A DNA stretch of 32,000 nt from NCBI RefSeq assembly GCF_018449435.1, contig NZ_JAHCMU010000001.1:247299-279298 (forward strand). The letters run 5' to 3'. Of the stretch, positions 4,227-20,593 are shown piece after piece. A program made the position numbers and the translations under genes. Source of the stretch: Flagellimonas sp. 389 (GTDB lineage Bacteria > Bacteroidota > Bacteroidia > Flavobacteriales > Flavobacteriaceae). Position 1 is the first letter of the stretch. Each line of letters starts with the position of its first letter. The notes beneath the pieces are model-generated. The model was not told where the DNA came from. It did not search any database and saw nothing but the letters and a program-made list of their open reading frames with translations.

Positions 4227-4300
4227 GGTCTGGTAGTTCAGTTGGTTAGAATACCTGCCTGTCACGCAGGGGGTCGCGGGTTCGAGTCCCGTCCAGACCG
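4227..4300 (+). tRNA. tRNA-Asp (anticodon GTC), no encoded CCA
   Basis: A manual cloverleaf folds as follows: acceptor GGTCTGG/CCAGACC, D-arm GTTC..GAAT, anticodon stem CCTGC/GCAGG with loop CTGTCAC, T-arm GCGGG-TTCGAGT-CCCGT, discriminator G. Confidence 0.93.
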
Positions 4301-4303
4301 CTT
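4280..4303. repeat. attL core: 24-bp direct repeat GTTCGAGTCCCGTCCAGACCGCTT (3' 21 nt of tRNA-Asp plus 3 nt)
   Basis: An identical 24-mer recurs at 22061-22084. A tyrosine integrase gene follows each copy. Confidence 0.85.
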
Positions 4304-4324
4304 GGAATATTTCCAAATTTATGC

Positions 4325-4359
4325 AAAAGCCTGTAAATGAAATGTTTACAGGCTTTTTT
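4325..4359 (+). terminator. rho-independent terminator downstream of tRNA-Asp
   Basis: Stem AGCCTGTAAA / TTTACAGGCT with loop TGAAATG, followed by TTTTTT. Confidence 0.7.
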
Positions 4360-4398
4360 CATTTCCATTGGCACCAAAAAACATCAAAAAACACCATA

Positions 4399-4420
4399 TA
4401 AAAGGTGAGCAATTCGGTGC
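4399..4420 (+). repeat. 22-bp repeat TAAAAGGTGAGCAATTCGGTGC, left copy (candidate integrase arm-type site)
   Basis: An exact second copy lies at 21985-22006 near the other island end. A degenerate version (AAAAGGTCACAAATCGTCAAC, 22182-22202) sits at the same ~97-98 bp distance from the second att core. Confidence 0.5.
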
Positions 4421-4553
4421 GCATTTCATCATCAAAAAAATGCTCACCGCCATCGCTGTAATTGACTGTTTTATAATTTATTGCAAGGATTTGTTAACAT
4501 TTATTTAAGACCCCTTTTTGTACCTTCAAAGTGTTAAATCAAAACCTTTTGCC

Positions 4554-5789
4554 ATGTTCACCACAATCAATGTCATTTTTTACCCCAAAAAAAGAAAATC
4601 AAGCAACAATAAATTAGTGCCTATTTATGCCCGTATTACATTGGACAGTAAACGTGCAGAGTTCAGTACAGGCAAACAAGTCGACCCCTTAAAGTGGGAT
4701 GCCAATACCGGTAGATTACGAGGGAAAACTCCAGAAACACTGGTATTGAACCGATTCTTCGATGCCTTGAAAGCCAAGTGTGTTTCCATCTATGACGAGT
4801 TGGTTCGCAATGAAGAATACGTGGATGCCGATGCCGTGAAGAACATCTTTTTGGGCAAGGGCCAAAAACAATATATGATCTTGGAAATATTCCAAAATCA
4901 CAATGATGAAATGGAAAGTTTGGTTGGCAAGGAATATTCCGCAGGAACACTCCAACGATATAAAGCCGCTAAATCACATATCTCCGATTACATAGTACAC
5001 AAGTACCAAAAAAAGGATTTCCCTCTTAAAAAGCTCGATTATGAGTTTATAACGGGCTTTGATTACTTTTTAAAGAGCAAAAAAAACTGCTCTCACAATA
5101 CAGCGACCAAATATATCGTCAATTTCAAGAAAATTGTTCGTATCGCATATGCCAATCAATGGATTGATCGAGACCCTTTCTTCCATTGGTCTGCAAGTTG
5201 GAAACAAAAAGAGCGGGAGTTTCTAACACACGAGGAACTGGAATCGATGCTAAAGCAAGAATTTGAATTTGAAAGATTGGACACAGTACGGGATATGTTT
5301 TTATTCTGCTGTTATACCGGACTGGCTTTTGCCGATATTGAAAAATTGACAAAGGATGATCTGGTCAAGGACATCAAAGGAAACAAATGGATCAAGACCA
5401 AAAGGAAAAAGACCAAGGTTTTGAGCAGTATTCCATTGTTGAGCATTCCAGAGGCCATAATCGATAAGTACAAAGATCATCCCAGAGTGATTGAAAAAAA
5501 GACATTGCTACCTGTATACACCAATCAGCGAACCAATTCCTATCTAAAGGAAATTGCCACAGCATGTAAAATCAAAAAGACATTGACCACACATTTGGCC
5601 AGACACACATTTGCGACGACCGTGACCCTTTCCAATGGGGTGCCGATTGAATCCGTGAGCAAAATGCTGGGGCATACCTCTTTGAAGACGACCCAGATCT
5701 ATGCCAAGGTATTGGACAGCAAAATTTCGGACGACATGGAAAAATTGAAAAATGACCCAGCCCTATTGGAGTTCGCCAAGTCCATTTGA
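4554..5789 (+). CDS. tyrosine-type site-specific integrase (Bacteroidota family), island 1
   Basis: The C-terminal catalytic block is HLARHTFATTVTLSNGVPIESVSKMLGHTSLKTTQIYAKV (HxxR ... H ... Y). The gene sits 250 bp downstream of the tRNA. ATG 4554 (MFTTINVIFYPKK) is preferred over the TTG at 4518. Confidence 0.93.
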   Translation: MFTTINVIFYPKKRKSSNNKLVPIYARITLDSKRAEFSTGKQVDPLKWDANTGRLRGKTPETLVLNRFFDALKAKCVSIYDELVRNEEYVDADAVKNIFLGKGQKQYMILEIFQNHNDEMESLVGKEYSAGTLQRYKAAKSHISDYIVHKYQKKDFPLKKLDYEFITGFDYFLKSKKNCSHNTATKYIVNFKKIVRIAYANQWIDRDPFFHWSASWKQKEREFLTHEELESMLKQEFEFERLDTVRDMFLFCCYTGLAFADIEKLTKDDLVKDIKGNKWIKTKRKKTKVLSSIPLLSIPEAIIDKYKDHPRVIEKKTLLPVYTNQRTNSYLKEIATACKIKKTLTTHLARHTFATTVTLSNGVPIESVSKMLGHTSLKTTQIYAKVLDSKISDDMEKLKNDPALLEFAKSI

Positions 5790-6136
5790 AACTTTTTTAT
5801 TCGCTTGCCCACAAGTTGTTCTGATTTGGGACACTTCAATTTAATTTGATACAGTTTGGAAAAATCAAAAAGTAGAAATTTAGAACTTTCCTTGTTTAAT
5901 AATTGTTTTATCTAGTTTATATATGTTTTATATAAGGTACCAGTGCTTGTCCACAGCTTGTCTCGATTTTGGTACAGTTTCGGTACAAAGCTTGTCCCAA
6001 TTCTAAACTAGTTGACTTCATTTGTTTTGATGTGATTTGGTTGTCTTCGCCGTTCTCCCCAAGTTATCTACAAACAAATATTCTTACTACCTAACTCCTC
6101 AATAAAGACTACAAAATGAGTTTTTACCTGTTTTGG

Positions 6137-6205
6137 GCTATAAAATTGTAATTTATAGCTCAATTTTTAGTTATTTTTGAGCTATAAAAGTTAAGTATAT
6201 AGCTC
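6137..6205 (+). promoter_or_regulatory. candidate fic promoter/operator: two tandem palindromic units plus a TAnnTTTG-type -7 box
   Basis: IR1 is GCTATAAA-n7-TTTATAGC (6137-6159). IR2 is GAGCTATA-n11-TATAGCTC (6179-6205) and abuts the fic ATG. TATTTTTG at 6172-6179 fits the Bacteroidota -7 consensus, and a TTG lies in the IR1 spacer (6146-6148). Confidence 0.35.
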
Positions 6206-7315
6206 ATGACAGCATTTAAATGGAACTGGCAGCAAAAGGGTTGGCCCAATTTTACCTATGATGAGGCAGCTTTGAAGGACTTGGAATATCAGTTTGTGCA
6301 AACAAGTGGTGTTGCTCTTGGTTCCATAAAACATATTGATGCAGATGACAAGAATGAGCTTTTGATTGAGGTTTTGTCGGATGAGGCCCTTACTACCTCG
6401 GCCATAGAAGGGGAATATCTTGATCGCGGGAGCATACAGGAATCCATAAAAAAGAATCTAGGCCTTGAAACCGAAAGAAAAAAACTTCCACAAGCTGAAT
6501 ATGGTATATCTGAAATGATGGTCAACCTCTACCGAACATATGCAGAACCTTTGTCCCATGAGCACCTTTTTGAATGGCACCGAATGCTTACCTCCGGTAG
6601 AAGGGATCTATTGGGTATTGGAAAATATCGTTCCCATGATGACCCTATGCAAGTTGTTTCAGGGCGTTTGGATAAACCAACCGTCCATTATGAAGCTCCT
6701 CCCTCAGCACAAATGACAAAGGAAATGGAAACTTTTGTTTCTTGGTTCAATGAAATTCATAGTGAAAATAATTCCAAGATGCTTCCATTGGCCAAGTCCG
6801 GGATAGCACATTATTATTTTTTAGCTATTCATCCCTTTGAAGATGGCAATGGACGTATAGCCAGAGGACTTTCTGAAAAATCAGTGTCCATGGATTTGGG
6901 GAGATCAGCACTTATTTCATTGTCACAAACTATTGAGTCCAATAAAAAGGGTTACTATTCTGCTTTGGAAGCCCATAATTTCAAATTAGATCTCACCGAA
7001 TGGCTTGTGTACTTTGGAGAAACCATAATTGCCGCTCAACAACATACGGTAAGAACTATTGATTTTTTGATTCAAAAAGCAAGATTTTTTGACCGTTTCT
7101 CACCATTAATGAATGACCGTCAACTTAAAGTGGTACAACGTATGTTCAAAGCTGGATATACAGGTTTTAATGGTGGACTCAGCGCGGATAACTATATTAG
7201 TATTGCCCGTACTTCTGCATCAACAGCCACCCGTGACCTAAAGGATTTGGCAGACAAATCCATACTTATTAAAACAGGAGAACTCAAAGGCACCCGGTAT
7301 TCACTAAACTTATGA
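6206..7315 (+). CDS. Fic family protein (AMPylase-type fold) with an internal inhibitory motif and a C-terminal wHTH-like tail
   Basis: The Fic motif HPFEDGNGRIARGL is present. An N-terminal (S/T)xxxE(G/N) motif is present (TSAIEG). The N-terminus WNWQQKGWPNFTYD is typical of the Fic N-terminal extension. The C-terminus ARTSASTATRDLKDLADKSILIKTGELKGTRYSL is wHTH-like. Confidence 0.92.
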   Translation: MTAFKWNWQQKGWPNFTYDEAALKDLEYQFVQTSGVALGSIKHIDADDKNELLIEVLSDEALTTSAIEGEYLDRGSIQESIKKNLGLETERKKLPQAEYGISEMMVNLYRTYAEPLSHEHLFEWHRMLTSGRRDLLGIGKYRSHDDPMQVVSGRLDKPTVHYEAPPSAQMTKEMETFVSWFNEIHSENNSKMLPLAKSGIAHYYFLAIHPFEDGNGRIARGLSEKSVSMDLGRSALISLSQTIESNKKGYYSALEAHNFKLDLTEWLVYFGETIIAAQQHTVRTIDFLIQKARFFDRFSPLMNDRQLKVVQRMFKAGYTGFNGGLSADNYISIARTSASTATRDLKDLADKSILIKTGELKGTRYSLNL

Positions 7316-7824
7316 ATTAGGTAAGAAAGAGTCCATAAAAATATTTAAGTGGAATTGGTAGTCATGTCAAATCTTCACGATTTCCCCCTAAACCTAATGT
7401 TCTTCACGGCAAACGCAATCCTTTAAGATTAAATAGCTGATTTTAAATATTTTACACGATAAATTCAGGTCAGTTAACCGAATTCTGAACCGTTTTCAAA
7501 TCGGTACATACAGAGACAAAACTTATGGATGTTTTACACCACTAATTTAGTCAAAATATTTCAGCCATATAAAATGGGCTTCCCCAAATTATAAAATAAC
7601 TGAGTAACTGTAAAACTAAATGAACAAGGAATTCACTGCTATAGAAAAACTTGCTTCCTTCCCTTTGGCTAATCGTAACAAGATTATTTTAACTTTGTGT
7701 AAGTCTATTCTTTAAATTTAAGGTATATCTCATTACTGCAAGTCAATGACCACATACCAAATTTGTTATTGAATAATGATTAGGATTTAAGTATATTGGC
7801 AACAAAGCTTATTATATAATACAT

Positions 7825-8892
7825 ATGACCAAATTACCAAAACTAAAAGCAGTTGATTTTTTTTGTTCAGGAGGAGGCATGAGTTTTGGGATGCAAGAAG
7901 CTGGCATCAAAATTCTTGCTGGAATTGATTTTGATATTAGTTGTAAAGAGACATATGAATCTAACATAACAGGAGCTGATTTTATCCATGCTGATGTTTT
8001 TGATTTAAGTGAAGACTATTTAACACAAAGACTCTCCCTAAAAAAAAATGACGATGAGCTTGTTTTAATTGGTTGTAGTCCATGCCAATTTTGGAGTATT
8101 ATCCAAACCGATAAATCCAAATCTTCAAAATCCAAAAACTTACTCAAAGAATTTAGACGTTTTGTAGAACATCTCAATCCTGGTTATGTCGTGGTTGAAA
8201 ATGTACCTGGGGTTTTAAGAAAAAAAAGGGCAAGTGGTTTGTCTGGATTTGTAAGGTTGCTTAAAGCAAATGGATATAAAGTCCACTTTGATGTTCACGA
8301 AGTAAGTGAGTACGGTGTTCCACAGCATCGTAGAAGATTTACTCTTATTGCAAATAGAGTTACCCCAATAGAAGTTGCACCTATTCCATTAAGTGGCAAT
8401 AAAGTAACGGTTAGAGATGTTTTAGGAGAACATAATGGATTTCCTAAAGTACCCCAAGGGCATAAAGATGACACACCTTTCTTACATCGCGTTGCTGGAT
8501 TAGAAAAAATAAACTTAGAAAGACTTGCTATGACCCCTAAAGATGGAGGTACTAGATTAGCATATGTTGATAATGAGGAATTGGCACCAAAATGCCATAA
8601 AGGCAAAAAAGATAGTTTTAAAGATATATATGGAAGAATGTGGTGGGATCGTCCCGCTCCTACCATTACAACTAAATTTTTTAGTTTGTCCAACGGACGA
8701 TTTGGTCATCCCGAGGAAGATAGGGCAATTTCTTTGAGAGAAGGTGCAATCCTTCAATCCTTCCCAATAGATTATGTTTTTAAAACCAACAGCATTGCCA
8801 ATACTGCCAGAATGATTGGTAACGCTGTTCCGCCGAAGTATGCAACTGCTATAGGTAAAGCGATAATTGAAAATCATTACAATGCAGTTTAG
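7825..8892 (+). CDS. DNA (cytosine-5)-methyltransferase
   Basis: C5-MTase motifs occur in the canonical order: I DFFCSGGGMSFG, IV GCSPCQFWS, VI ENVPGV, VIII QHRRRFTLIA, X GNAVPP. Target specificity cannot be read from the sequence. Confidence 0.95.
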   Translation: MTKLPKLKAVDFFCSGGGMSFGMQEAGIKILAGIDFDISCKETYESNITGADFIHADVFDLSEDYLTQRLSLKKNDDELVLIGCSPCQFWSIIQTDKSKSSKSKNLLKEFRRFVEHLNPGYVVVENVPGVLRKKRASGLSGFVRLLKANGYKVHFDVHEVSEYGVPQHRRRFTLIANRVTPIEVAPIPLSGNKVTVRDVLGEHNGFPKVPQGHKDDTPFLHRVAGLEKINLERLAMTPKDGGTRLAYVDNEELAPKCHKGKKDSFKDIYGRMWWDRPAPTITTKFFSLSNGRFGHPEEDRAISLREGAILQSFPIDYVFKTNSIANTARMIGNAVPPKYATAIGKAIIENHYNAV

Positions 8893-11785
8893 GACAAAAG
8901 CTAGAGCAGTAGACTTATTGGGTAAGGGACAAATAGCAGATTTACCCACTGCTATTACAGAATTATGGAAGAACGGTTATGATGCTTACGCTGATAACTT
9001 AAAAGCCGAATTATTTAAAGTGGGATTTCAGGGTCTCTCCCAATCCTATTTTAAAATTTCCGATGATGGAAAAGGAATGTCAAACTCCGACATTTTAGAT
9101 AAATGGCTGGTATTAGGCACAGATTCAAAATCAAGGGCCAAAATAGAGGACGAATCAGAAGAGACTTTATGGAAGTCCCCCCGTATTAAGGCTGGAGAAA
9201 AAGGAATAGGACGTTTGTCCGTTGCTTACTTAGGGAATCCAATGTTGATGCTAACTAAGAAATTGGGGCACTCAATGCAAGCTGTATATTTTGACTGGAG
9301 ATTATTGGAAAACTATAATCTATTCTTGGATGACATAGTAATCCCATTGAAACCAGTGGAAGATTTAAATTGTTTACAGGATATTTTCAAAAGCTTAAAA
9401 AGCGACTTTTTATCAAATTTTGAAAAAGAAGTAGATTTAAACAATGAGCCAATCTGGGAAGAAGGGCAAAATGAATTAAAATCAGATATCATTTTAGATA
9501 CGGAGGAGGCAGTTTTAGAAAATCCTATCCTTAATAGTATTTCATCTTTCTATAACACAAATGATTCCCATGGTACCTTTTTTTTAATCTTTAATCCCAT
9601 TTCTCAAATTGTTGAACTTTCGGAAAGGGATGAAGATAATATGGAAGACAAGAATTTTGTCACATCCAGTTTGACTGGTTTTACCAATCCTTTTTTAGAA
9701 AAGCCGCTAAAAATTAATACTTCTTTTGATATTCATAGTGAATCAGAGACCTACGATTTACTACAATCCCGAGGTGAATTTTTTAATCATTCTGATTTTA
9801 AGTTGGCCGATGTTTATATCAAAGGAGAATTTGATGGCAAAGGAACTTTTATTGGAAAGATTAGGATATTTGATAAGACAATCGACTATTCTTACACAAA
9901 TCCAAGAAAAAAAGATAAACGTTCATTTTATGGTAAAATCCCAATTGAACTTGGCTATTCACAAGGAGAAGAAAAATCTTCTACATTATCAGATGTTCAA
10001 TTCAATAAAATTTCAAATAAGGCAAAGGAATACGGTGGGTTGTATGTATATCGAGATAATTTTAGGGTATTACCATATGGTAGAGAAAATGCAGATTTCT
10101 TAAATTTTGAATTAAGAAGATCTAAAAGAGCAGGTACGTATTATTTTTCTTATCGTCGAATGTACGGCTACTTGGATATAACCCGGGAAAGAAATCCAGA
10201 TTTAAAGGATAAATCAAGTAGAGAAGGGTTAATTAACAATACAAAATATCGTGCATTTACAAGTGATGCAATTAACATGTTTGTTGCGTTAGCACAAGAC
10301 TTTTTCGCAACTAATCCAAAACAATCTGTTTTTAGGGACAAACTAAAAGAAAATCAAGATCAAAATGAAGCTTTAAAAGCAGATAAGGCGCGAGAAAAAA
10401 GTGAAAAAATTGCTTTTACACGTTCCTTGAATGAGTATCCTGAAAAACTAAAACTGCATCAAAAAAAATACGAGGAACTTCTAAATATACTTGACAAAAA
10501 ATTAAATCAAATACATTTAGGCTATTCTGAAGTCGAAAATATTTTGGAACAGCTTCAAAAATTAGACTTGGAACTCCAAAACCTGATTCCAAAAGTACCC
10601 AAAAGATACAAGCCTACTGATACTCAAACAGAGCGATTGTACAAATTTGAAAATAAGCTCAACGGCTATATTGAAAAAGTAGCTCCGAAAAGGGATGTAT
10701 TGATAGAAAAAGCACAAGATCGTCTGGAAATCAAAGATTTGCAGATTGATTTAACAAAAAGATACAATAACTATATTTCTTCTTTGGAAGAATTGCTCCA
10801 AAAACACAGCCAAAAACTCAAAGTTAAATTTAACAGCCTATTAGAGGATTATGGCGAACGGTCTAAACTACTATTAAATGTACTTGGCGAGGGCAAGAAT
10901 ACAATAATAAATCAAATAACTTCCAAAGAACAAGTCGCCCAATGCGCAAAGGAAATTGAGAAAAAATACATCAAAGTATTAGAAAAAGCCGAGAATACAT
11001 TATTCCCGTTAACAAATCATATTGAACGTTTATCCATTGACATTGATGAAGAGTTAGTTCAAGGTGCTTATAAGGCCCAGTATGACCAAATGAAATATCA
11101 GTGGGAACAAACTAGAGATACTGCACAATTAGGAATTGCGGTGGAAATCATTGATCACGAGTTTAATCAACTTTATGCAAAAATTAATACCCAATTAAAA
11201 ATACTAAGTACAAATAATGTAGTAAAATCGATTAAAGAGTTTAATTATCTAGAAACGAATTTCAAACAATTGGAGGACAAATATGCCTTGTTATCACCAT
11301 TATATCGGATATCCGGAGCTCTAGCCAAGGATGTATCCTGTCAATCTATCTACAGCTATTTATTAGAATTTTTTGAAAATCAAATTGATGAATACAACAT
11401 CATAATTGATGTCACAGATAGTTTCAAAAAGCATCATATTACTATTAAAGAACCTATTATTTATACGGTTTTCATTAACATAATAAATAATGCAATTTAT
11501 TGGATGAGAAACAAAGATTCTCGACGAATAAAATTAGATTATTGGCCAGAAACGAATGAGATACTTTTAATAAATTCTGGTGAGAAAATACCTGAATATA
11601 AACTAAAAAGAATCTTTGAATTATTTTACTCGCAACGCCCAAATGGAAGAGGGATTGGACTTTACTTGTCGAAGCAAAGTCTAAACGAAGCAGGTTATGA
11701 TATTTATGCTACAAATGATGAAAAATTTAATTCGTTGAACGGAGCTTGTTTCGTTATTAACCAAATAAACAAAGGGGATGTATAG
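8882..11785 (+). CDS. dual Bergerat-fold ATPase: N-terminal MORC/Hsp90-like GHKL module, coiled coil, C-terminal histidine-kinase core (H-box plus CA domain)
   Basis: The N-terminal part has ELWKNGYDA (ExxxNxxDA), DDGKGM (DxGxG) and GEKGIGRLS. The centre is a long heptad-rich helical region. The C-terminal part has an H-box-like AVEIIDHEFNQL (His codon 11156-11158), N-box INIINNAIYW, a degenerate G1 NSGEKIP, F-box IFELFYS and G2 GRGIGLYLSKQ. ATG 8882 overlaps the MTase stop by 11 nt. Confidence 0.85.
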   Translation: MQFRTKARAVDLLGKGQIADLPTAITELWKNGYDAYADNLKAELFKVGFQGLSQSYFKISDDGKGMSNSDILDKWLVLGTDSKSRAKIEDESEETLWKSPRIKAGEKGIGRLSVAYLGNPMLMLTKKLGHSMQAVYFDWRLLENYNLFLDDIVIPLKPVEDLNCLQDIFKSLKSDFLSNFEKEVDLNNEPIWEEGQNELKSDIILDTEEAVLENPILNSISSFYNTNDSHGTFFLIFNPISQIVELSERDEDNMEDKNFVTSSLTGFTNPFLEKPLKINTSFDIHSESETYDLLQSRGEFFNHSDFKLADVYIKGEFDGKGTFIGKIRIFDKTIDYSYTNPRKKDKRSFYGKIPIELGYSQGEEKSSTLSDVQFNKISNKAKEYGGLYVYRDNFRVLPYGRENADFLNFELRRSKRAGTYYFSYRRMYGYLDITRERNPDLKDKSSREGLINNTKYRAFTSDAINMFVALAQDFFATNPKQSVFRDKLKENQDQNEALKADKAREKSEKIAFTRSLNEYPEKLKLHQKKYEELLNILDKKLNQIHLGYSEVENILEQLQKLDLELQNLIPKVPKRYKPTDTQTERLYKFENKLNGYIEKVAPKRDVLIEKAQDRLEIKDLQIDLTKRYNNYISSLEELLQKHSQKLKVKFNSLLEDYGERSKLLLNVLGEGKNTIINQITSKEQVAQCAKEIEKKYIKVLEKAENTLFPLTNHIERLSIDIDEELVQGAYKAQYDQMKYQWEQTRDTAQLGIAVEIIDHEFNQLYAKINTQLKILSTNNVVKSIKEFNYLETNFKQLEDKYALLSPLYRISGALAKDVSCQSIYSYLLEFFENQIDEYNIIIDVTDSFKKHHITIKEPIIYTVFINIINNAIYWMRNKDSRRIKLDYWPETNEILLINSGEKIPEYKLKRIFELFYSQRPNGRGIGLYLSKQSLNEAGYDIYATNDEKFNSLNGACFVINQINKGDV

Positions 11786-13469
11786 TCAAAAAGCATATGA
11801 CATATTGGACTCATCTATAAATTCTGCCGTATTTATTGATGAAAAAGCAAAAGATTTTTTTTCAGAAACTGCCATTGATACCAATATACCAGAAGAAAAA
11901 TTATCTGTGGATCTATTCAAAACTTTTAAAGAAAATGGTAAAAACTTAGCAATACATAAGTTCGAGGTATCTACTCTAGAGAATTCAAAAACTTTAGATT
12001 ATTTATTCAATGGAAGAGATTTAATTCTTTTGGATTGGGAACTTGCTGATGTTGCAGGGCAAGAACATTCACTGAAACTGTTGAATAAAGTTATTGGCAC
12101 ACCATGCATTAATTTTTGCTGTATTTATTCAAGCTCGGCAAATTTTAATCAAATTCCACTTTTTCTAGAAGCCTATTTTTCTGGGGTGACTAAAGCAGAA
12201 TATGATTCTATTAAGGAAACATATGGACATGTTGAAATAAAGGAAGTAGAAGAAATTTGGGGCAAGAGCATTGGAGAAATAGAAGCTTTTTTTAATGAAA
12301 ACAAGATTGAAAGACAAGGTTTCCCAATCGAAAGGCTGCGAAAAAAGCCTATAGATTTGATACTGCGCCATTTATATGTTTCTCTAGTCAGTGACAAAGT
12401 TATTATTCCCGAGCAGGCACAAAAGGAATATGAAGTATTGAATACTGGAAATGATTCTTTTATTATCAATAATACTTTTGTTCTGACCTTAAAAAAAGAT
12501 GTCTCTGAGGATTCGGATTACAAAAAATTACTTAAAAGAATTTCCGATACTATTATAAAAAATAATGGCAGTTTTTTTCAGTTGTTGGGTATGGAAATGC
12601 AGTCCGTTTTTAATTCAAACGAACGATTCATCGATGATACCATTCTGAAATCTTCCACAGAAGCTCTTTTTCAATTTAGAAATCATATTCGAGACGACAA
12701 GACATTTGGCATTATTATCAAAAAACTACTAATTGAGCAAGCAACTCTTAAACTGAGAACGGCTAAACTAAAATTATTAGAAACCGAATTCTTAGACTAC
12801 AAAAGTGGAGAACTTAATGACAAAGTACCTAACCTCGAGGATCTTTTTCAGTTAAATGTATTTTATAATTCCGTTTCTGTTAAGAGTCTGCACCCAAATG
12901 ATATACCAAACTTGAATTTTGGGGATGTTTTTAAAGATTCAAATGATGAATACTACCTATGCATAACCGCCTTATGTGATTGTTACTATCCAAATAAAAT
13001 TCAGCATAATTTTTATTTTGCCAAAGGCAACGAATTTAGGGATAAAGAATTGGCTTTAAAATTGGGGGATACTGCTTTTATAAGCTTTTTACCTAATAAC
13101 AAAGTTGTCCATTGGGGAGATATCGAATATGTTAGAAAAGAAAAGATAAAAAAAGGTGATAACGAATCAGAAGATGAATTCAAAAATCGAAAATGTAATA
13201 ATGAGCTAGAAGCTTATAAAGTATTTCTTTATAAGCCTTTTTATATAAAACCTAAAGTTTACAATGTTGAAAACAATAAGTTGGAAGATAATAAGATTAG
13301 AATTTGGGATATAACAAACAAAATCACAAAACAAGGTAACGAGCACAATTTAAACTATTTTCATGTTGAATACATAACCACTCTTAGGGAAGATTATACA
13401 CAAAGAATTGCCAATCATGCTTTTGGCCACCCCTCAAGAGTAGGCGTTGATTTTGTAAAAATCAAATAG
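11778..13469 (+). CDS. receiver (REC)-like domain protein with an uncharacterised C-terminal module (candidate effector)
   Basis: The N-terminus has REC-pattern residues at CheY-like spacing: FIDE (D21/E22), DLILLDWEL (D86, codon 12033-12035), CCIYSSS (S118) and VTK (K139). I could not assign residues ~150-563. The ATG overlaps the upstream stop by 8 nt (ATGTATAG). Confidence 0.75.
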   Translation: MYSQKAYDILDSSINSAVFIDEKAKDFFSETAIDTNIPEEKLSVDLFKTFKENGKNLAIHKFEVSTLENSKTLDYLFNGRDLILLDWELADVAGQEHSLKLLNKVIGTPCINFCCIYSSSANFNQIPLFLEAYFSGVTKAEYDSIKETYGHVEIKEVEEIWGKSIGEIEAFFNENKIERQGFPIERLRKKPIDLILRHLYVSLVSDKVIIPEQAQKEYEVLNTGNDSFIINNTFVLTLKKDVSEDSDYKKLLKRISDTIIKNNGSFFQLLGMEMQSVFNSNERFIDDTILKSSTEALFQFRNHIRDDKTFGIIIKKLLIEQATLKLRTAKLKLLETEFLDYKSGELNDKVPNLEDLFQLNVFYNSVSVKSLHPNDIPNLNFGDVFKDSNDEYYLCITALCDCYYPNKIQHNFYFAKGNEFRDKELALKLGDTAFISFLPNNKVVHWGDIEYVRKEKIKKGDNESEDEFKNRKCNNELEAYKVFLYKPFYIKPKVYNVENNKLEDNKIRIWDITNKITKQGNEHNLNYFHVEYITTLREDYTQRIANHAFGHPSRVGVDFVKIK

Positions 13470-13777
13470 CTTCTATTGCTGACAATTTCAGGAATTATTT
13501 AATTGCTAGAAAGGATTACTATTATCCTTTACAAAACTACTGAATCATTAATCTTACAGCCTCTGAAGGCTCCCCTGTTTTCCTGAACATCGTCCAAACC
13601 CAGTTCGGGGTCAAGTATACTCATAGGGAGGCATAGAAATGCACGTACCGTCAACAGCAAATCTGCATGACCGTCCACATTAAAAAAGAAGGGTCGGAGT
13701 ATGGTAGTTCCTGTGGAGTCTCAAATTCTTTATAAGCTTTTCTTCGTTCGGGTTCATGGATTCATAATTTTATAGTA

Positions 13778-14125
13778 TTACTTATCTTCAAGTTCCAATA
13801 GCCTTTCGTCCAGTTTGTCCATAAAGTACATTTGGCTATCGGGAAGGATGGACAGTACCAGTTCCAATACCTGTGTGACACTGTCCTCCTTTGATGCATT
13901 CCTGTTTGCAGGTGACATCATCATCCCCTCCCCATCAAGGGCGAACACACAGACCTCCAAAAGACTTATTATCTGTGCCAACAAATGGTTATTGTCCCTG
14001 ACCTCGAAGGATACATAGTTTCCTTTAGCATCACCGGACTTTTTGTTTCCCAAAAGTCCCGAAAGATTGTTCCTGAGCTGTTGTATATCCTCTAGGGTCC
14101 TTAGCCTTTTCCTCTTTGATTTCAT
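13778..14125 (-). CDS. hypothetical protein (115 aa), paralogous to the C-terminus of the upstream 403-aa protein
   Basis: The gene starts 9 nt after the stop of the 14135-15346 gene on the same strand. Its sequence aligns with that protein's C-terminal ~115 aa (EVCVFALDGEG...VTQVLELVLSILPDSQMYFMDKLDERLL vs KVCITALEVEN...VREVLGYVLDLVPHEEMEFLDKIGKLL). Confidence 0.7.
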   Translation of the reverse strand: MKSKRKRLRTLEDIQQLRNNLSGLLGNKKSGDAKGNYVSFEVRDNNHLLAQIISLLEVCVFALDGEGMMMSPANRNASKEDSVTQVLELVLSILPDSQMYFMDKLDERLLELEDK

Positions 14126-14134
14126 ATTGTTGTT

Positions 14135-15346
14135 TTAATCGGTTGTGCTGGTCTGTTGTTCCGATAACAGTTTCCCGATCTTGTCAAGGAATTCCATTTC
14201 CTCATGCGGCACTAAGTCCAGAACGTACCCCAGTACCTCCCGTACATTATGTTCAGGCTGTTGGACAGACCTGTTTGGGAAGTTTTCCACTTCCAGTGCT
14301 GTGATACAGACCTTGATCAGGTTGGTAATCATAAACGAGGTGTCCAGATAGCCATCGGTCAACAGATCGATACTGTAGGTTCCCCTCTCCGGGCTATAGG
14401 GCTTTAAGGTGTAAAAGTGTTCCTCCTTCAGATCCTTTAGTTTTTCCAAGAGGGATTTTCCCTGTCCGTCATTTTCATTGTTCTTTTCAGGGAGGGTTTC
14501 GTCTCTGGTATCCGGCTCCTTGCCCTCGATTCGTTCCTTACAGTAAGCAAGGTGACGTTGGAAAATGGACTGCACCTCTTGGATGAATCCTATTAGTTCT
14601 GTTTGGATAGTTTTGGCCTGATTTTTTGTAATCTCAAATTCGCTGCCGTAACGCGCCACACTGTATGCATGCTCCAAGAGGAGCAGCAGTTCGTTGTTGT
14701 CCATTTTGGAGGTTTCCGAAAAGGGATGCAACGTTGGAAAGAAAGGCATGCAATAATTGATATGGCTGATAATGCTATGGGTCACCTTGCTCTTTCCGAT
14801 GCACATCTGTTCGATGAAACGGAACGCAAGCTCAAAGGCTTGATGCATGTTGAACGTGGCTATGGCATGGTTACCTTCCCCTATCAATATGTTCGCTGTG
14901 TTCGCAAAGGCTTTTATCTTTCCCATTTCAGAATCAAAATAACGGGTGGCCCTGTAGATGAGTGTCTTGTGCACTATTTCGGAATAGTCCATGATGTTCT
15001 CCCCCTCGGGATGGGCAAAGATGTTCTCCCCGAGACAGCAATGTTCCAAGAAATACAACGACCCCCTTTCAAGGCCAATTTCGGACTGGTTCTCCGTGTA
15101 GATCCTTATCCTGAAATCGGGATGCTCCTTTCCCTTTTTGGTCACAAGGGAACGGATTTCGTTGGGAAGTGGGTCGTTGTTGACATCAACAAAGAGGGTT
15201 ATGATATGATATTCAATATCGCCCTCTTTCTGTGGTCTGGACAGAAAGACCCTATCGATGGTAATGATGTTCAGGATGCCATCGAGCAAATTAGAGAGTT
15301 CTTCCGCTCTTTCAAAGTTTTCCGGTATGTTTGTGCCATGTGTCAT
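14135..15346 (-). CDS. hypothetical protein, possibly a degenerate nucleotidyltransferase-like N-terminus plus a HEPN-like helical domain
   Basis: This is a 403-aa uninterrupted ORF. The block GNHAIATFNMHQAFELAFRFIEQMCIGKSKVTHSI resembles a HEPN helix pair, but with Kx4H instead of Rx4-6H. The N-terminal region lacks the GS...DxD NTase motifs. The coding call is solid and the functional call is weak. Confidence 0.7.
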   Translation of the reverse strand: MTHGTNIPENFERAEELSNLLDGILNIITIDRVFLSRPQKEGDIEYHIITLFVDVNNDPLPNEIRSLVTKKGKEHPDFRIRIYTENQSEIGLERGSLYFLEHCCLGENIFAHPEGENIMDYSEIVHKTLIYRATRYFDSEMGKIKAFANTANILIGEGNHAIATFNMHQAFELAFRFIEQMCIGKSKVTHSIISHINYCMPFFPTLHPFSETSKMDNNELLLLLEHAYSVARYGSEFEITKNQAKTIQTELIGFIQEVQSIFQRHLAYCKERIEGKEPDTRDETLPEKNNENDGQGKSLLEKLKDLKEEHFYTLKPYSPERGTYSIDLLTDGYLDTSFMITNLIKVCITALEVENFPNRSVQQPEHNVREVLGYVLDLVPHEEMEFLDKIGKLLSEQQTSTTD

Positions 15347-15490
15347 GAGATCGTGGTTTAAAAGGTTCGAGAATCACTGACCATATTAAGCCCACATTGC
15401 CAAGTACCCCACCATGTGCACTTGTATTTTATCGGAACTGTTTTGTATTTTACAATCGGATTATTGTGGGAAACACCCTATATTTGAAGT

Positions 15491-15877
15491 ATGCAGACAA
15501 AGACCAAGAACAACCATATAGGTAGAAAAATCGGTAGGATCAGGGAACTCCGTGGGATGAAGCAGGAGACCTTGGCCGAAGAACTGGGCATCAGCCAACA
15601 GGCCGTTTCCAATATCGAGAACAGCGAGAAGGTGGATGATGCGAAACTGGAAGAGATTGCTTCAGTTTTAGGAGTGACCAAAGAAGGTATTGAGAATTTC
15701 TCGGAAGAAGCAGTATTTAATATTATCAACAATACTTTTAAAGATAATAGCTCCAACAACAATAATTATCTCTGTACTATAAATCCAATTGAAAAAATTA
15801 TTGAATTATACGAGCGTCTTGTACAGGCAGAAAAGCAAAAGGTAGCATCCTTAGAAAAACGGTTGAGCAAAGACTAA
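15491..15877 (+). CDS. XRE-family helix-turn-helix transcriptional regulator
   Basis: IGRKIGRIRELRGMKQETLAEELGISQQAVSNIENSEK is a classic Cro/C1-type HTH. The gene is divergent from the 14135-15346 gene. Confidence 0.9.
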   Translation: MQTKTKNNHIGRKIGRIRELRGMKQETLAEELGISQQAVSNIENSEKVDDAKLEEIASVLGVTKEGIENFSEEAVFNIINNTFKDNSSNNNNYLCTINPIEKIIELYERLVQAEKQKVASLEKRLSKD

Positions 15878-15891
15878 TTTTGTCTTATAGT

Positions 15892-17499
15892 TTAATTTCG
15901 CACAAAACCTAAGGGTGTTTTTTCATCAAAGTCTCCATAAACCACTGGATTCTGACTATTATTAGTGTAAATTTTAACTTTTTCCGTGACGTATTTCACG
16001 ACTTCATCAATTGTTAAAATCTTATCAGAGTTATAATCCGCTGAACCGGACAACGCTTCTATTAGATAGTAGGAAAAAATACCCCTTCTTATTCCCTTTA
16101 TCTCCGTCGAAATCTCATCTGCTTTTGATGATAAAAACAACAAACTCCCACCCTTAGAATCTTTGAAGGCTTGATAATATGAGCCAATACCATCTATATT
16201 ACTTTTTGATTGGTTTATTATACTACCAGAATGGCATGCGTCGGCGATACAAATTTTAGTCTTGGCAAGACTTTTTTCAAAGATTTTCTTTATCTCATTA
16301 TGAGAGACTAAATATCCGTTTGAGGAATCTTTGTCATATCCAACAAAACTTCCTTTAGCCCCATGTCCAGAAAAATAAAACAAAATCAAATCATTAGAAT
16401 CGGCCTTTTCAGCAATGTAATTAAGACTTTTTAAGATCTTACTTTTGGTTGCATCTTCATCAATCAGTCTAAATATTCTGTCCTTGTGAACCGCACCCCC
16501 TTCTGGACTTCTTAAAAATGAATATAAATCTTGGGCATCATCATCAGCATAATTCAAACTCCTTTGATTTTCATATTTGGCAACTCCTATTACCACAGCA
16601 TACGTATTTATATTTTCATCAGTTGAAAAATTTGACTGTGATTGATCTAGTGACATCATTCCATCAATTTCTTGACTTTCCAATTCTTGGTCAATATCAA
16701 CACTTACAGTTAGAAAGCTTTCCCCACCATATACCACTTTTGAAATCAACTTGTTATGATCATGGGAATAGCTGAAAATATCATAAGGTGAGCTAAACAT
16801 TTCAAGTTTATACTTGGATGTTTTTACACTTCTGGGAAAACCACTTGCTATCCATGTTCCATTCTCATAAAATAAAGACTTAAGCCGTTTAATACCTCCC
16901 ACATTCTTTATTGCTTGATCAATATTAACATCCAAAGAATAAGAAAAATAAGATGCTGGGAATTCATTGGACATGACCACATACCAATATCCATCAATAA
17001 AGCAAACTGAATTAATACTCATATTTTTTAAATTGGAATCTATATTTGCTCTAGGAAATATTCTTGCGCTAAACAGCTCTTGATCATAGTCTGCTCCTTT
17101 TCTTTCAAAAAGAATTCTTATTGTTTGATAATCCCTGTCGTACTCCAAATCAATTACAAAAAAACCAAGCTGTTTATTATAATTAATTGTTCTATTTAAA
17201 GCCTCGCTTTTAACCGACATCAATTTCTGTTCCCCTCTGTTGTTGTGGATATCATTATAATGCCCAACAACCCATCCTTCAGGGCCTTGCTCTATATCCC
17301 ATACAAAATATCCAGCATCACGGACATCATTCATCAACAAATCTAAATCATATCCTATTCTATAATTAGATCTGCACAAATAAGGATCGTTGCAAAACAA
17401 GCCAATCCATGGTTTGGACTGTCCATATAAGGAGGAGAAATTGGTATACAAGAACAGAAATAAGCTAAAAAAACAAATAAGTTGATTCTTTAAATACAT
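15892..17499 (-). CDS. secreted caspase-family (peptidase C14) protein with an unknown N-terminal domain
   Basis: An N-terminal signal-peptide-like segment is present (LICFFSLFLFLYTNFSSLYG/Q). The C-terminal half has the caspase His/Cys dyad context: LILFYFSGHGAKG and KICIADACHSGS, preceded by YAVVIGVAKYENQRSLNYADDDAQDL. Confidence 0.88.
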   Translation of the reverse strand: MYLKNQLICFFSLFLFLYTNFSSLYGQSKPWIGLFCNDPYLCRSNYRIGYDLDLLMNDVRDAGYFVWDIEQGPEGWVVGHYNDIHNNRGEQKLMSVKSEALNRTINYNKQLGFFVIDLEYDRDYQTIRILFERKGADYDQELFSARIFPRANIDSNLKNMSINSVCFIDGYWYVVMSNEFPASYFSYSLDVNIDQAIKNVGGIKRLKSLFYENGTWIASGFPRSVKTSKYKLEMFSSPYDIFSYSHDHNKLISKVVYGGESFLTVSVDIDQELESQEIDGMMSLDQSQSNFSTDENINTYAVVIGVAKYENQRSLNYADDDAQDLYSFLRSPEGGAVHKDRIFRLIDEDATKSKILKSLNYIAEKADSNDLILFYFSGHGAKGSFVGYDKDSSNGYLVSHNEIKKIFEKSLAKTKICIADACHSGSIINQSKSNIDGIGSYYQAFKDSKGGSLLFLSSKADEISTEIKGIRRGIFSYYLIEALSGSADYNSDKILTIDEVVKYVTEKVKIYTNNSQNPVVYGDFDEKTPLGFVRN

Positions 17500-17773
17500 A
17501 TAGTGCTGGTTTAGTGTTCATTATAAAATTACAATATTATCATAACAAATGGTTTGTTAAATCTGACCACAATATTTTAATTTGTTGACAGTGGAAAACA
17601 ATACAACTTATGTCAATAGGCTAAGAAATATTGTCCTCGGTTATTAATTTTCATTTTTATAAGTTTAAAAAGCGAGCGAAACCATGTTTCGCGCTGCAAG
17701 CGTCCCAAAACCTTACCCTTAATCTAATACTACTGAGCGAGGCAACTTCATCTATTTATCGGCTATATTCTTC

Positions 17774-18343
17774 TCATCGTGTATGAGAATCCAAAGGTCT
17801 GTTGGTTTCATGTCTATATCTTTCCAACCGCCCTTCCGTTATCTCAAGCTTCAGGTAGCCTTTCCCAAAACTGCTCTTGACCACCTTGACATTTTCAAGG
17901 ATGCTCTTTAAATCTGCTTGAAGTGAGGCCGCCTTTTCCTCCAAACGGTCATACTTGATTCTGGGAATCATCGTTTCACCATCAAACACAGGTACTCGCT
18001 TTGGGGGATTCTTCTCGGTCATGTCCTCAATAAAATCAAATTCATCCTCTTCATTATCCAGTTCCTGATTGAACAAAGCCTGCATCATGCCAATGGTGGG
18101 AAGTGTCTGGTTCTTTTCAATGTCCCTGATAATCGCAATAACTGCATCTGTCCGTTTTCTATTCTTGCGAATCTCCTGACCGATACTTTTTTCAAACCTT
18201 TCTGAAGGTAGGAACCCATGCCACTCAAAAAAATCCATGACCATATCCAAGGTATGGGAATAACTCTTACCCATTTTTCTTGAAAAGCTCTTAAATCTGG
18301 ATAGGGTCTTTTTCTTTAACCTAACTGCTCTAAAATCATCCAT
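17774..18343 (-). CDS. BfmA/BtgA-like mobilisation protein (MobA-type DNA-binding accessory protein)
   Basis: MDDFRAVRLKKKTLSRFKSFSRKMGKSYSHTLDMVMDFFEWHGF...RTDAVIAIIRDIEKNQTLPT matches my recollection of Bacteroidota BfmA/BtgA proteins. ATG 18343 is preferred because the 33-residue N-terminal extension in the ORF track looks non-native. No relaxase gene follows. Confidence 0.65.
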   Translation of the reverse strand: MDDFRAVRLKKKTLSRFKSFSRKMGKSYSHTLDMVMDFFEWHGFLPSERFEKSIGQEIRKNRKRTDAVIAIIRDIEKNQTLPTIGMMQALFNQELDNEEDEFDFIEDMTEKNPPKRVPVFDGETMIPRIKYDRLEEKAASLQADLKSILENVKVVKSSFGKGYLKLEITEGRLERYRHETNRPLDSHTR

Positions 18344-19233
18344 AATACTTGTTTTAAGGTCACAATTGTTACAATTCTGTTCAGTGTTTACAGGTATTAA
18401 TAGCTTTATTGCAACAATCCACATTAAACTTCCTAAAATCAACCATTTCCAAAAACCCTAACAAACAGGGCTTTTCCGAAGGAAAATGCATCAGCAGCGT
18501 CGCTTTAGCGCGCTACCCTCTTGCTCTTCATTGTCCCGCAAGCGGGACAGAACAAAGACAACCTGATTTGAAAATCAGTTGCCCTCACTATTATTATTAA
18601 TCTGGTTTGTACGGACTTTGGGAAAGTCAAATCAAAAATGAAAGACCGCACTATGAATATTATTCTACAACAAATTAAAGATACAATTTTTGGTACAAGA
18701 AAGGGTTGCACTGTTCTCGAAGGAAAATGAATTTGCAATTCGAGTGAATCTAAGTAACTGCCCCTGTAAATTCTTAATGTTCTCAGTGTCTATGATATTG
18801 CACTGTCCCAGTGACTTTCTAAGAATTCCCCTTTAAAAAAATATATTCAACTGTCTATTAGACTTTAATAGAAAGAACACCGCCTTGGTGTATTGTCGTC
18901 TTGCTCAACCATTTTTCCAAAAAAATGAAAAACCGCTAAGACCTGTGTCCTTTGACCACAGTATTTAAGGTAAATAATTCATTTTTGAAATTTATAAGAG
19001 CTGCTAAATTCTAGGACATTGGGCTGTCCCATCAAATTTTGCTGAAATCCCCTAATCTTTTTTTTGTACAGCTTCTCAATTGTCCCATCGTAATCGGACA
19101 ATTAGAAAATAATCAAAAAGATTTTATTAATTCGACTTTCGGCGTTTATAAGCATTCTTCTCCTTTACCAACACCCTTTCTAAGGTTAATCGTAAATCCC
19201 TGAATTTATGAAGTTTTAAATAGAGGATTTTTA

Positions 19234-19691
19234 ATGTTCAATAAAATTGCCCATATCTCTTTGGTTGTAAAAGATTATGATAAAGCTATCGATTCTTACG
19301 CTCAAAAGCTGGATTTCGTTCATATTAAGGATACTAGAATTGATGAATCCAAAAGATGGGTGATTATTGCACCAACAGGAGCAAAAGAATGCTGCTTGCT
19401 TCTCGCTAAAGTTACCAACGAGAAACAATTTGCCAGTATTGGAAACCAAACAGGAAGTCGGTCGGGTTGGATTTTTCCTTTTCACCGATGATTTCATTAG
19501 AGACTACAACAAACTTGTGAATCGTGGGGTAACACTTGTAAGATCACCTAAAAAAGGAACCCTACGGGGTTGTGGGCGTGTTTCAAAATCTTTATAGTAA
19601 TTTGTGGAACCTATTGGAGCCTAATGAGAAAAATAAGGGGCTATCATATAATAGAAATATAAGTTCAAATGAGCGATGGGAACTAAACTGA
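19234..19691 (+). pseudogene. VOC (glyoxalase/bleomycin-resistance/dioxygenase) family gene disrupted by two frameshifts
   Basis: Frame a reads MFNKIAHISLVVKDYDKAIDSY...IGNQTG. Frame b reads GRVGFFLFTDDFIRDYNKLVNRGVTLVRSPKK. Frame c reads YGVVGVFQNLYSNLWNLLEP. Together they rebuild one VOC protein. The shifts lie near 19455-19465 and in the A-run near 19548-19556. The 3' end is uncertain. Confidence 0.75.
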
Positions 19692-19792
19692 ATGAAATAT
19701 AATAAAACTTGGGTATAGCCATCTCGAATGGAAGTACATGCCAAATCAAATTCAGCATATAAATCCCGTTGTGCACAATTTGTAGAAACTTT

Positions 19793-20593
19793 ATGCCAAC
19801 AAAAGAATTTAGGAAATCCTTCAGGGAAACAATCGATTCGCTTCACGTGTCAATATGTGAATTGACTTTGATTGAAGACACTAATTTCTATCAATTGCTT
19901 AGAGCATATTATACATTTATCCATAATCGAACCCAAACTCTATTTTTACTTGTTCAAAACGATTGTCTATGGGATGCAGATATTATTCTTAGACCTATTG
20001 CAGAATGTACTGTGAAATTTGCTTTTATTTCATCATTTGACAATCCAGAACGAAATGAAAAAGTAAGAGAATTTTGGGAAGATTTAGCTGAAATAAATAG
20101 ACTGAAACAATCCAAACAAGCTAAGCAAATAATTGAATTGACTAACATTGATTCTAAATTTTTGTCGGACATTATCTTGGAAGAAAACGAACATCGCATT
20201 TTATCTGAAAAATGGACAAAATCCAATAGACAAAGAACTGAACAACTTTGGTCTTACAACGAAATGATTAAAACTATTTCAACGAATTACGATTTTAAAG
20301 AAATACTTGGTTTAGCTAGAAATTTCACTCAATCAAGCCATCTAATTCACGCTGATGAGACAGCTTTAGGAGTGATAAATGATAGAGAACAAAGAACGGA
20401 AGAACAACGAGAAGCATTGATGAATTTTCACGAGATTAGACTGCTAAGTGATTGTGTCCAATTATATCTTTGGTTAGTAAAAGTTTGTTCTAAATTGTCT
20501 GATAAAGAATTGGACTCTGAGCTAATTAAAAAAGTAGAGGAGTTTGAAAATGGAAAAGAAATATTTAAACCTCTGAATAAAATAATTGAATAA
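19793..20593 (+). CDS. hypothetical helical protein (possibly DUF5677-like)
   Basis: An uninterrupted ORF from ATG 19793. The pattern WDADIILRPIAECTVKFAFISS...VREFWEDL...SSHLIH recalls DUF5677-type all-helical proteins, but this rests on memory only. Confidence 0.6.
   Translation: MPTKEFRKSFRETIDSLHVSICELTLIEDTNFYQLLRAYYTFIHNRTQTLFLLVQNDCLWDADIILRPIAECTVKFAFISSFDNPERNEKVREFWEDLAEINRLKQSKQAKQIIELTNIDSKFLSDIILEENEHRILSEKWTKSNRQRTEQLWSYNEMIKTISTNYDFKEILGLARNFTQSSHLIHADETALGVINDREQRTEEQREALMNFHEIRLLSDCVQLYLWLVKVCSKLSDKELDSELIKKVEEFENGKEIFKPLNKIIE

Follow-up and report, generated by a model that had tools for sequence, protein, structure and literature searches.

A hybrid GHKL histidine kinase is the middle gene of a mobile three-gene cassette in Flagellimonas sp. 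389 and probably serves as its sensor kinase. The gene lies in a 32,000-nucleotide (nt) stretch of contig NZ_JAHCMU010000001.1 (positions 247,299-279,298), called the window here, and all coordinates are window positions (Table 1). It is preceded by a gene for a Dcm-type C5 cytosine DNA methyltransferase and followed by one for a partner protein of the Response_reg_2 family. We consider it probable that closure of the N-terminal ATPase of the kinase is relayed through a histidine, His759, to an aspartate of the partner, Asp86. The open reading frame (ORF) runs on the forward strand from an ATG at 8882 to its stop at 11785 and encodes 967 amino acids (aa). An alternative TTG start at 8867 would lengthen the protein by five codons, and the ATG was chosen because the residues M1-Q2-F3-R4 are invariant in 52 homologues. 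The translation is 100% identical to an NCBI entry annotated as an 'ATP-binding protein' of Flagellimonas sp. 389. The protein is soluble, with no transmembrane or hydrophobic segment (maximum Kyte-Doolittle average over 19 residues of 1.0).

The kinase combines two different Bergerat-fold ATPases in a single polypeptide. Three Pfam matches, far beyond chance, define its architecture: HATPase_c_3 at aa 23-144 (E 4.7e-11, 43.3 bits, cut-off 25), HEF_HK at aa 749-811 (E 9.7e-20, 71.3 bits, cut-off 24.1) and HATPase_c at aa 858-959 (E 9.2e-13, 49.1 bits, cut-off 26.4). In NCBIfam the kinase matched nothing above threshold, the weaker matches being to generic sensor kinases and confined to the CA domain. 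An AlphaFold2 model of the monomer, built on the 52 homologues with a mean pLDDT (predicted local distance difference test) of 71, consists of a Bergerat fold at aa 20-145, an alpha/beta region at aa 146-478, long helices, a helical hairpin and an alpha/beta domain at aa 815-961. Both ATPase modules and the partner's receiver keep their catalytic residues without exception down to about 25% identity; for the kinase, the alignment comprised orthologues 25-57% identical to it, including plasmid copies from Pseudoalteromonas, Pantoea and Rhizobium at 25-30%. Two different Bergerat-fold ATPases in one protein had been proposed before from the letters of the window and a list of its ORFs (the sequence-only reading), with a Pfam scan suggested as a check. 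All three domains score above their thresholds, the AlphaFold model and its Foldseek matches agree, and the motifs lie within a few nucleotides of where they had been placed.

The N-terminal part of the kinase is predicted to be a MORC/Hsp90-type GHKL ATPase followed by a transducer region. Bergerat motifs I-III are present and invariant: motif I contains the catalytic Glu (E27), the Mg-binding Asn (N31) and D34, motif II reads D61-D62-G63-x-G65 and motif III G105-x-K107-G108-I-G110-R111. Model confidence is low at aa 77-112, as expected for a mobile ATP lid, and pLDDT values are mostly 70-90 across aa 150-400. In Foldseek searches against the PDB, the N-terminal part matched MORC2, SMCHD1 (6mw7), MORC3 (5ix1, 5ix2) and Hsp90/HtpG over 475-600 columns with E values from 2.6e-10 to 1e-7, the lowest being that of MORC2 (9cdh_B, 546 columns). 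This span is much longer than the GHKL fold of about 145 aa, and the transducer domain that follows is therefore matched as well. The transducer region has invariant residues of its own, namely R391, PYGR401 and D443-K444-x-x-R447-E448-G449. An invariant S-R-E-G-L loop presumably resembles the catalytic loop of the Hsp90 middle domain (…SREMLQ…), whose Arg contacts the gamma-phosphate of ATP. A sequence-profile search of the PDB returned no match for the N-terminal half of the kinase. The MORC-like, HATPase_c_3 flavor that the sequence-only reading had given this module is supported by the Pfam and Foldseek matches, and the S5-like transducer that it had raised as a possibility is found at the level of the fold only, through the length of the Foldseek alignments.

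Such an ATPase could also act as a sensor of the nucleotide pool, reporting the ATP or nucleoside triphosphate state of the cell (its depletion or surge in infection) and not DNA, a role put forward as speculation when the family was defined (Bellieny-Rabelo et al., 2021; PMC8011034). Strict conservation of the ATP-binding residues in the N-terminal domain and the lack of any dedicated DNA-binding domain among the Pfam matches of the kinase would both suit a nucleotide sensor. We nevertheless regard this role as very unlikely. The fold likeness spans the transducer typical of GHKL ATPases that clamp DNA or client proteins (MORC2 with DNA, SMCHD1, Hsp90), the close association with genes for a DNA methylase and Vsr speaks for DNA, and conservation of the general base Glu27 implies cycles of hydrolysis, not simple binding.

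The two Bergerat folds lie about 700 aa apart and are separated by the alpha/beta transducer (about 330 aa) and then by about 240 aa of long helices. In the model these helices cover aa 482-541, 548-568, 580-669 and 682-716. The linker is the least conserved part of the kinase, with a region identity of 32-64% compared with 78-89% in the GHKL fold, and a crude heptad scan detects a heptad-like signal in patches only (aa 521-571, 616-653 and 683-710). A coiled coil of about 400 aa, as first read from the sequence, does not describe this spacer: aa 146-478 are alpha/beta, long helices are confined to aa 482-716 and heptads are patchy. The helical region itself had been placed at 10320-11090 (aa 480-737), which is about right.

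The C-terminal ~240 aa are supported as a DHp+CA histidine-kinase core by the predicted structure and by conservation. The DHp helices of the model span aa 723-776 and 785-811, and the first of them bears both His759 and the adjacent acidic residue E760. His759 is invariant in the 52 homologues and in orthologues down to ~25% identity. Also invariant in the orthologue alignment are the N box (N866/N869/N870), G900, the F box (F912/F915) and the G2 box (G922-R-G-x-G926) of the CA domain. Foldseek matched the C-terminal ~240 aa to the kinase cores of CpxA, HK853, ZraS, WalK, YF1 and CusS over 215-260 columns, with target-normalized TM-scores of up to 0.67 and a match probability of 1.0 for CpxA, HK853, ZraS and WalK. 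In the PDB sequence-profile search the kinase matched CA domains only, the best being ThkA (3a0t, E 1.1e-8). The kinase core that the sequence-only reading had proposed here is upheld by the position of the His on a DHp helix and by the presence and invariance of the ATP-lid elements (F box and G2).

The G1 box reads N898-S-G-E-K in the window and NSGxK throughout the Bacteroidota clade, whereas proteobacterial orthologues have DNGPG or DSGPG. The box had been called degenerate in the sequence-only reading; it is a variant specific to the Bacteroidota clade, and NSG is likewise found at the aligned position of ThkA (3a0t), a histidine kinase of solved structure. The variant bears on the possibility that the C-terminal part is a pseudo-kinase, a scaffold for dimerization or partner docking that transfers no phosphate, with the paraMORC ATPase working on DNA by clamping, compaction or recruitment. 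MORC-type ATPases are established to act on DNA without phosphotransfer. The G1 box of the Bacteroidota clade (NSGEK in the window) has neither the canonical Asp nor the second Gly, and the C-terminal HATPase_c is missing altogether from group 3 of the family, 11 of 222 proteins (PMC8011034). Even so, we judge a pseudo-kinase to be highly improbable, as the conservation of His759, the N box, the F box and G2 together with the Asp, Ser/Thr and Lys of the receiver would be hard to explain without phosphotransfer. In addition, proteobacterial orthologues keep DxGxG, a solved kinase shares the NSG variant and the receiver Asp is essential in the related Ambrosia system discussed below.

The partner protein contains a predicted receiver fold and a conserved C-terminal domain. 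Its conservation was assessed in 68 diverse family members and its structure from a predicted model (mean pLDDT 76). The receiver residues are D21/E22, the predicted phospho-acceptor D86 (nt 12033-12035), S118 and K240; D21, D86 and K240 are invariant in all 68 partners, and position 118 is Thr or Ser, with Thr in 90% of the family. Foldseek searches with the model gave weak but specific matches to receiver domains. Because K240 follows a strand at aa 233-239, the receiver appears to carry a helical insertion of ~95 aa between helix 4 and strand 5, and this insertion is poorly conserved (11-49% identity between loci). The C-terminal domain is modeled with pLDDT values of mostly 80-90 and possesses a conserved set of residues comprising F-G382-D383, C395-x-T397-x-x-C400-D401-C402, W446, Y540-x-Q542-R543-x-x-N546 and R554. 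Readings of these residues as PD-(D/E)xK, HNH or GIY-YIG were rejected, by inspection only, as conserved Lys, His and Tyr/Arg are absent at the required positions.

The three genes form an overlapping operon with the order dcm, histidine kinase (HK) and response regulator (RR). The end of dcm overlaps the start of the kinase gene by 11 nt, the same overlap as in most related loci, and the kinase stop is overlapped by 8 nt by the partner start, an arrangement typical of related loci including those on proteobacterial plasmids. A scan for sigma-70 promoters gave a result no better than shuffled sequence. The methylase matches Pfam DNA_methylase over the full profile (E 3.5e-48), the NCBIfam dcm model and the PADLOC model MTase_II (E 5.9e-88), and its catalytic motifs (FCSGGG, SPCQ, ENV, QHRRR and GNAVPP) are intact in the translation.

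The dcm-HK-RR triad is the only unit conserved across 39 related loci, which were given L numbers. Dcm recurs in 37 of them, the kinase and the partner in 36 each and Vsr, a fourth family, in 13, and the flanks all differ. The presence of Vsr in 13 loci suggests that the Dcm-type methylase is active in vivo and fits real 5-methylcytosine production. All of the 120 closest relatives of the kinase (67-76% identity) have the same three domains, and those with a named source come from several Bacteroidota orders. The triad also occurs, at 25-30% identity, on the plasmids from Pseudoalteromonas, Pantoea and Rhizobium, all three proteobacterial; one of them has the order HK-RR-Dcm-Vsr. Within otherwise similar cassettes the partner gene is mosaic. 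In six loci (L001, L002, L018, L019, L023 and L030) the kinase is 67-75% identical to that of the window and the partner only 33-42%, in all of its regions; the kinase DHp is 84-88% identical in the five of these with an intact C-terminus, the L023 kinase being truncated. Similarity rankings by Dcm and by partner also disagree across loci. Taken together, these observations indicate that the partner gene has been replaced or is evolving very fast. Decayed cassettes occur as well: the kinase is truncated in L031 as in L023, the partner is split in L026 and only the last 134 aa of the kinase are left in L037. In the Niabella hibiscisoli contigs L034 and L035 the cassette is heavily fragmented.

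The fusion architecture is that of an already described family, of which the window protein is a further member, from Flagellimonas. The sequence-only reading knew of no characterized example; this is outdated, since the fusion was defined in 2021 and a homologue, AbrB, is genetically required for phage defense. The Pfam families PF19191 (HEF_HK) and PF19192 (Response_reg_2) were created for the fusion and its partner (Bellieny-Rabelo et al., 2021; PMC8011034). In that study, 174 of 222 proteins had the 'group 1' arrangement of HATPase_c_3, HEF_HK and HATPase_c, 91.6% had a linked Response_reg_2 gene, and over-represented neighbors were C5 methylases, Vsr and HNH_2, which ties the family to restriction-modification systems. 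The authors proposed that it descends from the paraMORC ATPases described by Iyer et al. (2008) and reported no experiments. The family description also notes occasional Vsr or HNH_2 neighbors and lists Bacteroidetes genera such as Flavobacterium and Chryseobacterium. The window kinase has the domains of group 1 in the same order, the solubility, the His with its acidic neighbor, an adjacent PF19192 gene and the C5 methylase gene upstream, and nothing essential differs. To the family our analysis adds the MORC/Hsp90-like transducer fold, the anatomy of the helical linker, the clade-specific G1 variant and the tRNA-Asp island context, and to the partner the receiver insertion with K240, the orphan C-terminal domain and mosaic gene replacement.

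Genetic data exist for one homologous system, Ambrosia of Pseudomonas aeruginosa, which comprises the XRE protein AbrR, the N6 methylase AbrA, AbrB, the receiver protein AbrC and the HNH nuclease AbrD (bioRxiv 10.1101/2025.09.30.679545). That the N-terminal GHKL Asn and the receiver Asp are required for phage defense has been shown by others in this homologue only, where AbrB N40A (the Asn of N-terminal motif I) and AbrC D60A abolish defense. Like the window kinase, AbrB has HATPase_c_3 and a C-terminal HATPase_c, and its gene lies between those for a methylase and a receiver protein. BLASTP of the kinase against the first 399 aa of AbrB gave E values of 2e-16 and 5e-11, with 30% identity over aa 3-190 (GHKL) and 38% over aa 386-450 (transducer, the most similar part). 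The systems differ in that AbrB is 747 aa long and thus 220 aa shorter, the Ambrosia methylase is N6-adenine and not C5, and an HNH nuclease, which is essential, and an XRE regulator are part of Ambrosia, whereas the window cassette lacks a linked nuclease or adjacent regulator. The nearest XRE gene of the window lies 2 kb from the cassette, past a convergent HEPN gene, and no HNH gene is present in the operon.

Ambrosia is also the model for a purely transcriptional two-component role, in which the kinase would sense infection and the phosphorylated partner, its C-terminal domain being a DNA-binding module and not an effector, would induce the methylase and a nuclease nearby or elsewhere. Expression of the Ambrosia cluster is reported to be infection-induced, and defense depends on the AbrC phospho-acceptor mutated in D60A (10.1101/2025.09.30.679545). 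In eight related loci a nuclease gene (HNH_2, NOV_C or HNH-DUF3427) begins 2-11 nt past the partner gene, and an XRE-type gene lies near the cassette in three loci, among them the window (15491-15877). However, none of the 68 partners shows a match to a helix-turn-helix or any other DNA-binding family, BLAST finds no relationship between AbrC (209 aa) and the partner (563 aa), and a linked nuclease that could be regulated is missing from the window and from roughly half of the loci. We therefore think transcriptional control unlikely for this cassette.

Other known systems share single features with the cassette. As in MORC and paraMORC proteins, an N-terminal Bergerat fold is followed by a transducer, and the best structural matches are MORC2, MORC3, SMCHD1 and Hsp90. 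The paraMORC GHKL ATPases, which belong to restriction-modification systems, have cytosine methylases, Vsr and nucleases as gene neighbors (Iyer, Abhiman and Aravind, 2008; PMC2292703), but none of paraMORC1-5 as described there has a DHp+CA core, unlike the window kinase. VcSduA, a paraMORC3-type GHKL-nuclease fusion, is a validated phage-defense protein. Detocs, a defensive two-component system, is a precedent for a relay from kinase to receiver-effector: a cytoplasmic kinase phosphorylates a receiver that is joined to an effector of non-transcriptional type, and defense requires both the His and the Asp (bioRxiv 10.1101/2023.01.24.525353). The likeness to the window cassette is in logic only: Detocs has a TPR sensor and not a GHKL ATPase, a buffer receiver (DtcB), a PNP ATP-nucleosidase effector and no methylase. 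PADLOC 2.0 contains Detocs models, and neither the kinase nor the partner matches DtcA, DtcB or DtcC at E up to 0.01. The MADS defense system was considered and found unrelated, its paper mentioning only a histidine-kinase gene at the boundary, and papers on BREX-related systems and DefensePredictor mention kinase or HATPase-REC proteins only in passing.

In the phosphorelay that we favor, the kinase would be a soluble homodimer, held together constitutively by a DHp four-helix bundle and transiently at the N-terminal gate when this has bound ATP. This geometry would follow the general MORC/Hsp90 layout with DHp as the C-terminal dimerization element, and the N-terminal MORC/Hsp90-type ATPase would take the place of a sensor domain. 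ATP-driven closing of the N-gate, possibly around foreign DNA or triggered by it, would be relayed down the helical linker to DHp and would turn on autophosphorylation of His759 by the CA domain. The phosphoryl group, if transferred and in this direction, would pass to Asp86 of the translationally coupled partner and switch its C-terminal output domain, and the methylase would mark host DNA as self. The cassette may in this way contribute to defense against phages or plasmids. More tentatively, and with considerable doubt, the MORC/Hsp90-like clamp might sense DNA directly, possibly including its methylation state, with closure gating the His-Asp relay to a receiver whose output domain would have a fold not seen before; the nuclease-free triad might then be a self-sufficient, 'phospho-licensed' restriction or silencing system.

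Several observations weigh against the proposed phosphorelay. CA-domain ATP binding is uncertain because the G1 box of the Bacteroidota clade lacks the adenine-contacting Asp (N898 in the window). The partner's C-terminal domain, the presumed output, is unmatched by Pfam in the 68 partners at E up to 1 and by a PDB sequence-profile search at E up to 10, Foldseek against the PDB and BFVD (viral models) gave weak receiver-domain matches and none for this domain, and hhalign against NOV_C, HNH_2, HNH and Vsr of sister loci yielded probabilities of at most 0.3%. An enzymatic or DNA-binding fold was thus not recognized by these searches. A nuclease gene follows the partner in about half of the loci with downstream sequence and the window cassette has none, so the true effector may be a separate nuclease and the window copy may be incomplete. 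For Ambrosia, the pair is proposed to control transcription and not to activate an effector directly, and methylation by AbrA did not protect phage (10.1101/2025.09.30.679545). Both structural models are of monomers and of moderate mean confidence (pLDDT 71 and 76). PADLOC, which has no model for either protein, gave no match to kinase or partner at E up to 0.01. In the literature searched, we found no experiments on this subfamily, nor biochemical proof of DNA sensing or phosphotransfer for any family member.

The cassette sits on a mobile, defense-type island integrated at a tRNA-Asp gene. Two attachment-site repeats bound an island of ~17.8 kb (4304-22084) that holds the cassette and a tyrosine integrase gene (Table 1), and a further perfect 22-nt repeat is found at 4399-4420 and 21985-22006. 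A second integrase of the same type just past the right repeat suggests that two islands may have inserted in tandem at tRNA-Asp. The island also encodes a Fic/DUF4172 protein, and a homologue of this SoFic protein follows the cassette in L012. Downstream of the partner gene, the minus strand carries an orphan ORF of 115 aa (13778-14125) and then the HEPN gene. Small minus-strand ORFs are present just past the partner in several loci, including this one, and show no mutual similarity. The HEPN, XRE and caspase genes downstream of the cassette may constitute a separate defense module. The XRE family also adjoins the cassette in L011 and L013. The 231-aa protein at 20750-21445 may travel with cassettes, because a homologue (cluster c15) is encoded directly after the NOV_C gene in L005.

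Table 1. Features of the window and, in the last rows, nuclease genes next to the cassette in related loci (window positions in nt; aa numbering within each protein).
Feature	Position	Strand	Basis or remark
tRNA-Asp gene	4227-4301	+	ARAGORN
Left attachment-site repeat, 24 nt, GTTCGAGTCCCGTCCAGACCGCTT	4280-4303	+	exact repeat of tRNA-Asp 3' end
Island tyrosine integrase	4518..5789	+	Pfam Arm-DNA-bind_5, Phage_int_SAM_5, Phage_integrase
Fic/DUF4172 protein, SoFic	6206-7315	+	PADLOC SoFic E 4.7e-41
C5 cytosine DNA methyltransferase (Dcm type), first operon gene	7825..8892	+	Pfam DNA_methylase
Kinase gene	8882..11785	+	HATPase_c_3 + transducer + helical linker + HEF_HK (DHp) + HATPase_c
N-terminal Bergerat ATP-binding fold, kinase aa 23-144	8948..9313	+	Pfam HATPase_c_3
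ELWKNGYD	aa 27-34, 8960-8983	+	motif in translation
DDGKG	aa 61-65, 9062-9076	+	motif in translation
GEKGIGRLS	aa 105-113, 9194-9220	+	motif in translation
Alpha/beta transducer-like region, kinase aa 146-478	9317..10315	+	AlphaFold secondary structure
Long-helix linker, kinase aa 482-716	10325..11029	+	AlphaFold secondary structure
DHp helical hairpin, kinase aa 723-811, candidate phospho-acceptor His759 in D-H-E-F	11048..11314	+	Pfam HEF_HK, model helices
DHEFNQL	aa 758-764; His759 codon 11156-11158	+	motif in translation
CA domain, kinase aa 815-961	11324..11764	+	Pfam HATPase_c, ThkA profile match, Foldseek
NIINNAIYW	aa 866-874, 11477-11503	+	motif in translation
NSGEKIP	aa 898-904, 11573-11593	+	motif in translation
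IFELFYS	aa 911-917	+	motif in translation
GRGIGLYLSKQ	aa 922-932, 11645-11677	+	motif in translation
Partner Response_reg_2 protein, 563 aa	11778..13469	+	Pfam PF19192 E 1.8e-22, 80.8 bits (cut-off 27)
Predicted receiver fold, partner aa 13-260	11814..12557	+	invariant residues, model, Foldseek
Receiver helical insertion, partner aa 136-232	12183-12473	+	model
Partner C-terminal domain, aa 366-563	12873..13466	+	conservation, model
HEPN-domain protein	14135-15346	-	
XRE-type helix-turn-helix regulator	15491-15877	+	
EACC1-associated-type caspase	15892-17499	-	
231-aa protein without family match	20750-21445	+	
Right attachment-site repeat, 24 nt, GTTCGAGTCCCGTCCAGACCGCTT	22061-22084	+	exact repeat of tRNA-Asp 3' end
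Second integrase, same type, just past right repeat	22312-23556		
NOV_C/PDC-S36 nuclease	L005, L016, L020; start 2-6 nt past partner stop		PADLOC PDC-S36 E 3.8e-97
HNH_2 nuclease	L021, L023, L031, L032; start 3-4 nt past partner stop		PADLOC HNH E 3.9e-90
HNH-DUF3427 nuclease	L002; after partner gene		
Convergent HNH_2	L009, L033; after partner gene		
McrBC-like pair, AAA_5 + DUF2357/PDDEXK_7	L008, L018, L029; after partner gene		

The Flagellimonas locus represents no new architecture but offers a compact, nuclease-free and highly conserved three-gene form of the family. Its remaining interest lies in this form, in the coupling of a MORC-type ATPase to a phosphorelay and in the orphan output domain of the partner. 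This domain, together with the swapping of the partner gene between otherwise near-identical cassettes, makes the system a reasonable model for biochemical study. If the coupling is real, an ATPase of the DNA-clamp type, gated by ATP, would serve as the input of a phosphorelay, a design unlike that of ligand-binding sensor domains, and bacterial relatives of the eukaryotic MORC silencers would be tied to immunity. Should the clamp in addition sense DNA, the cassette would connect MORC-type DNA clamping with two-component signaling in a prokaryote.

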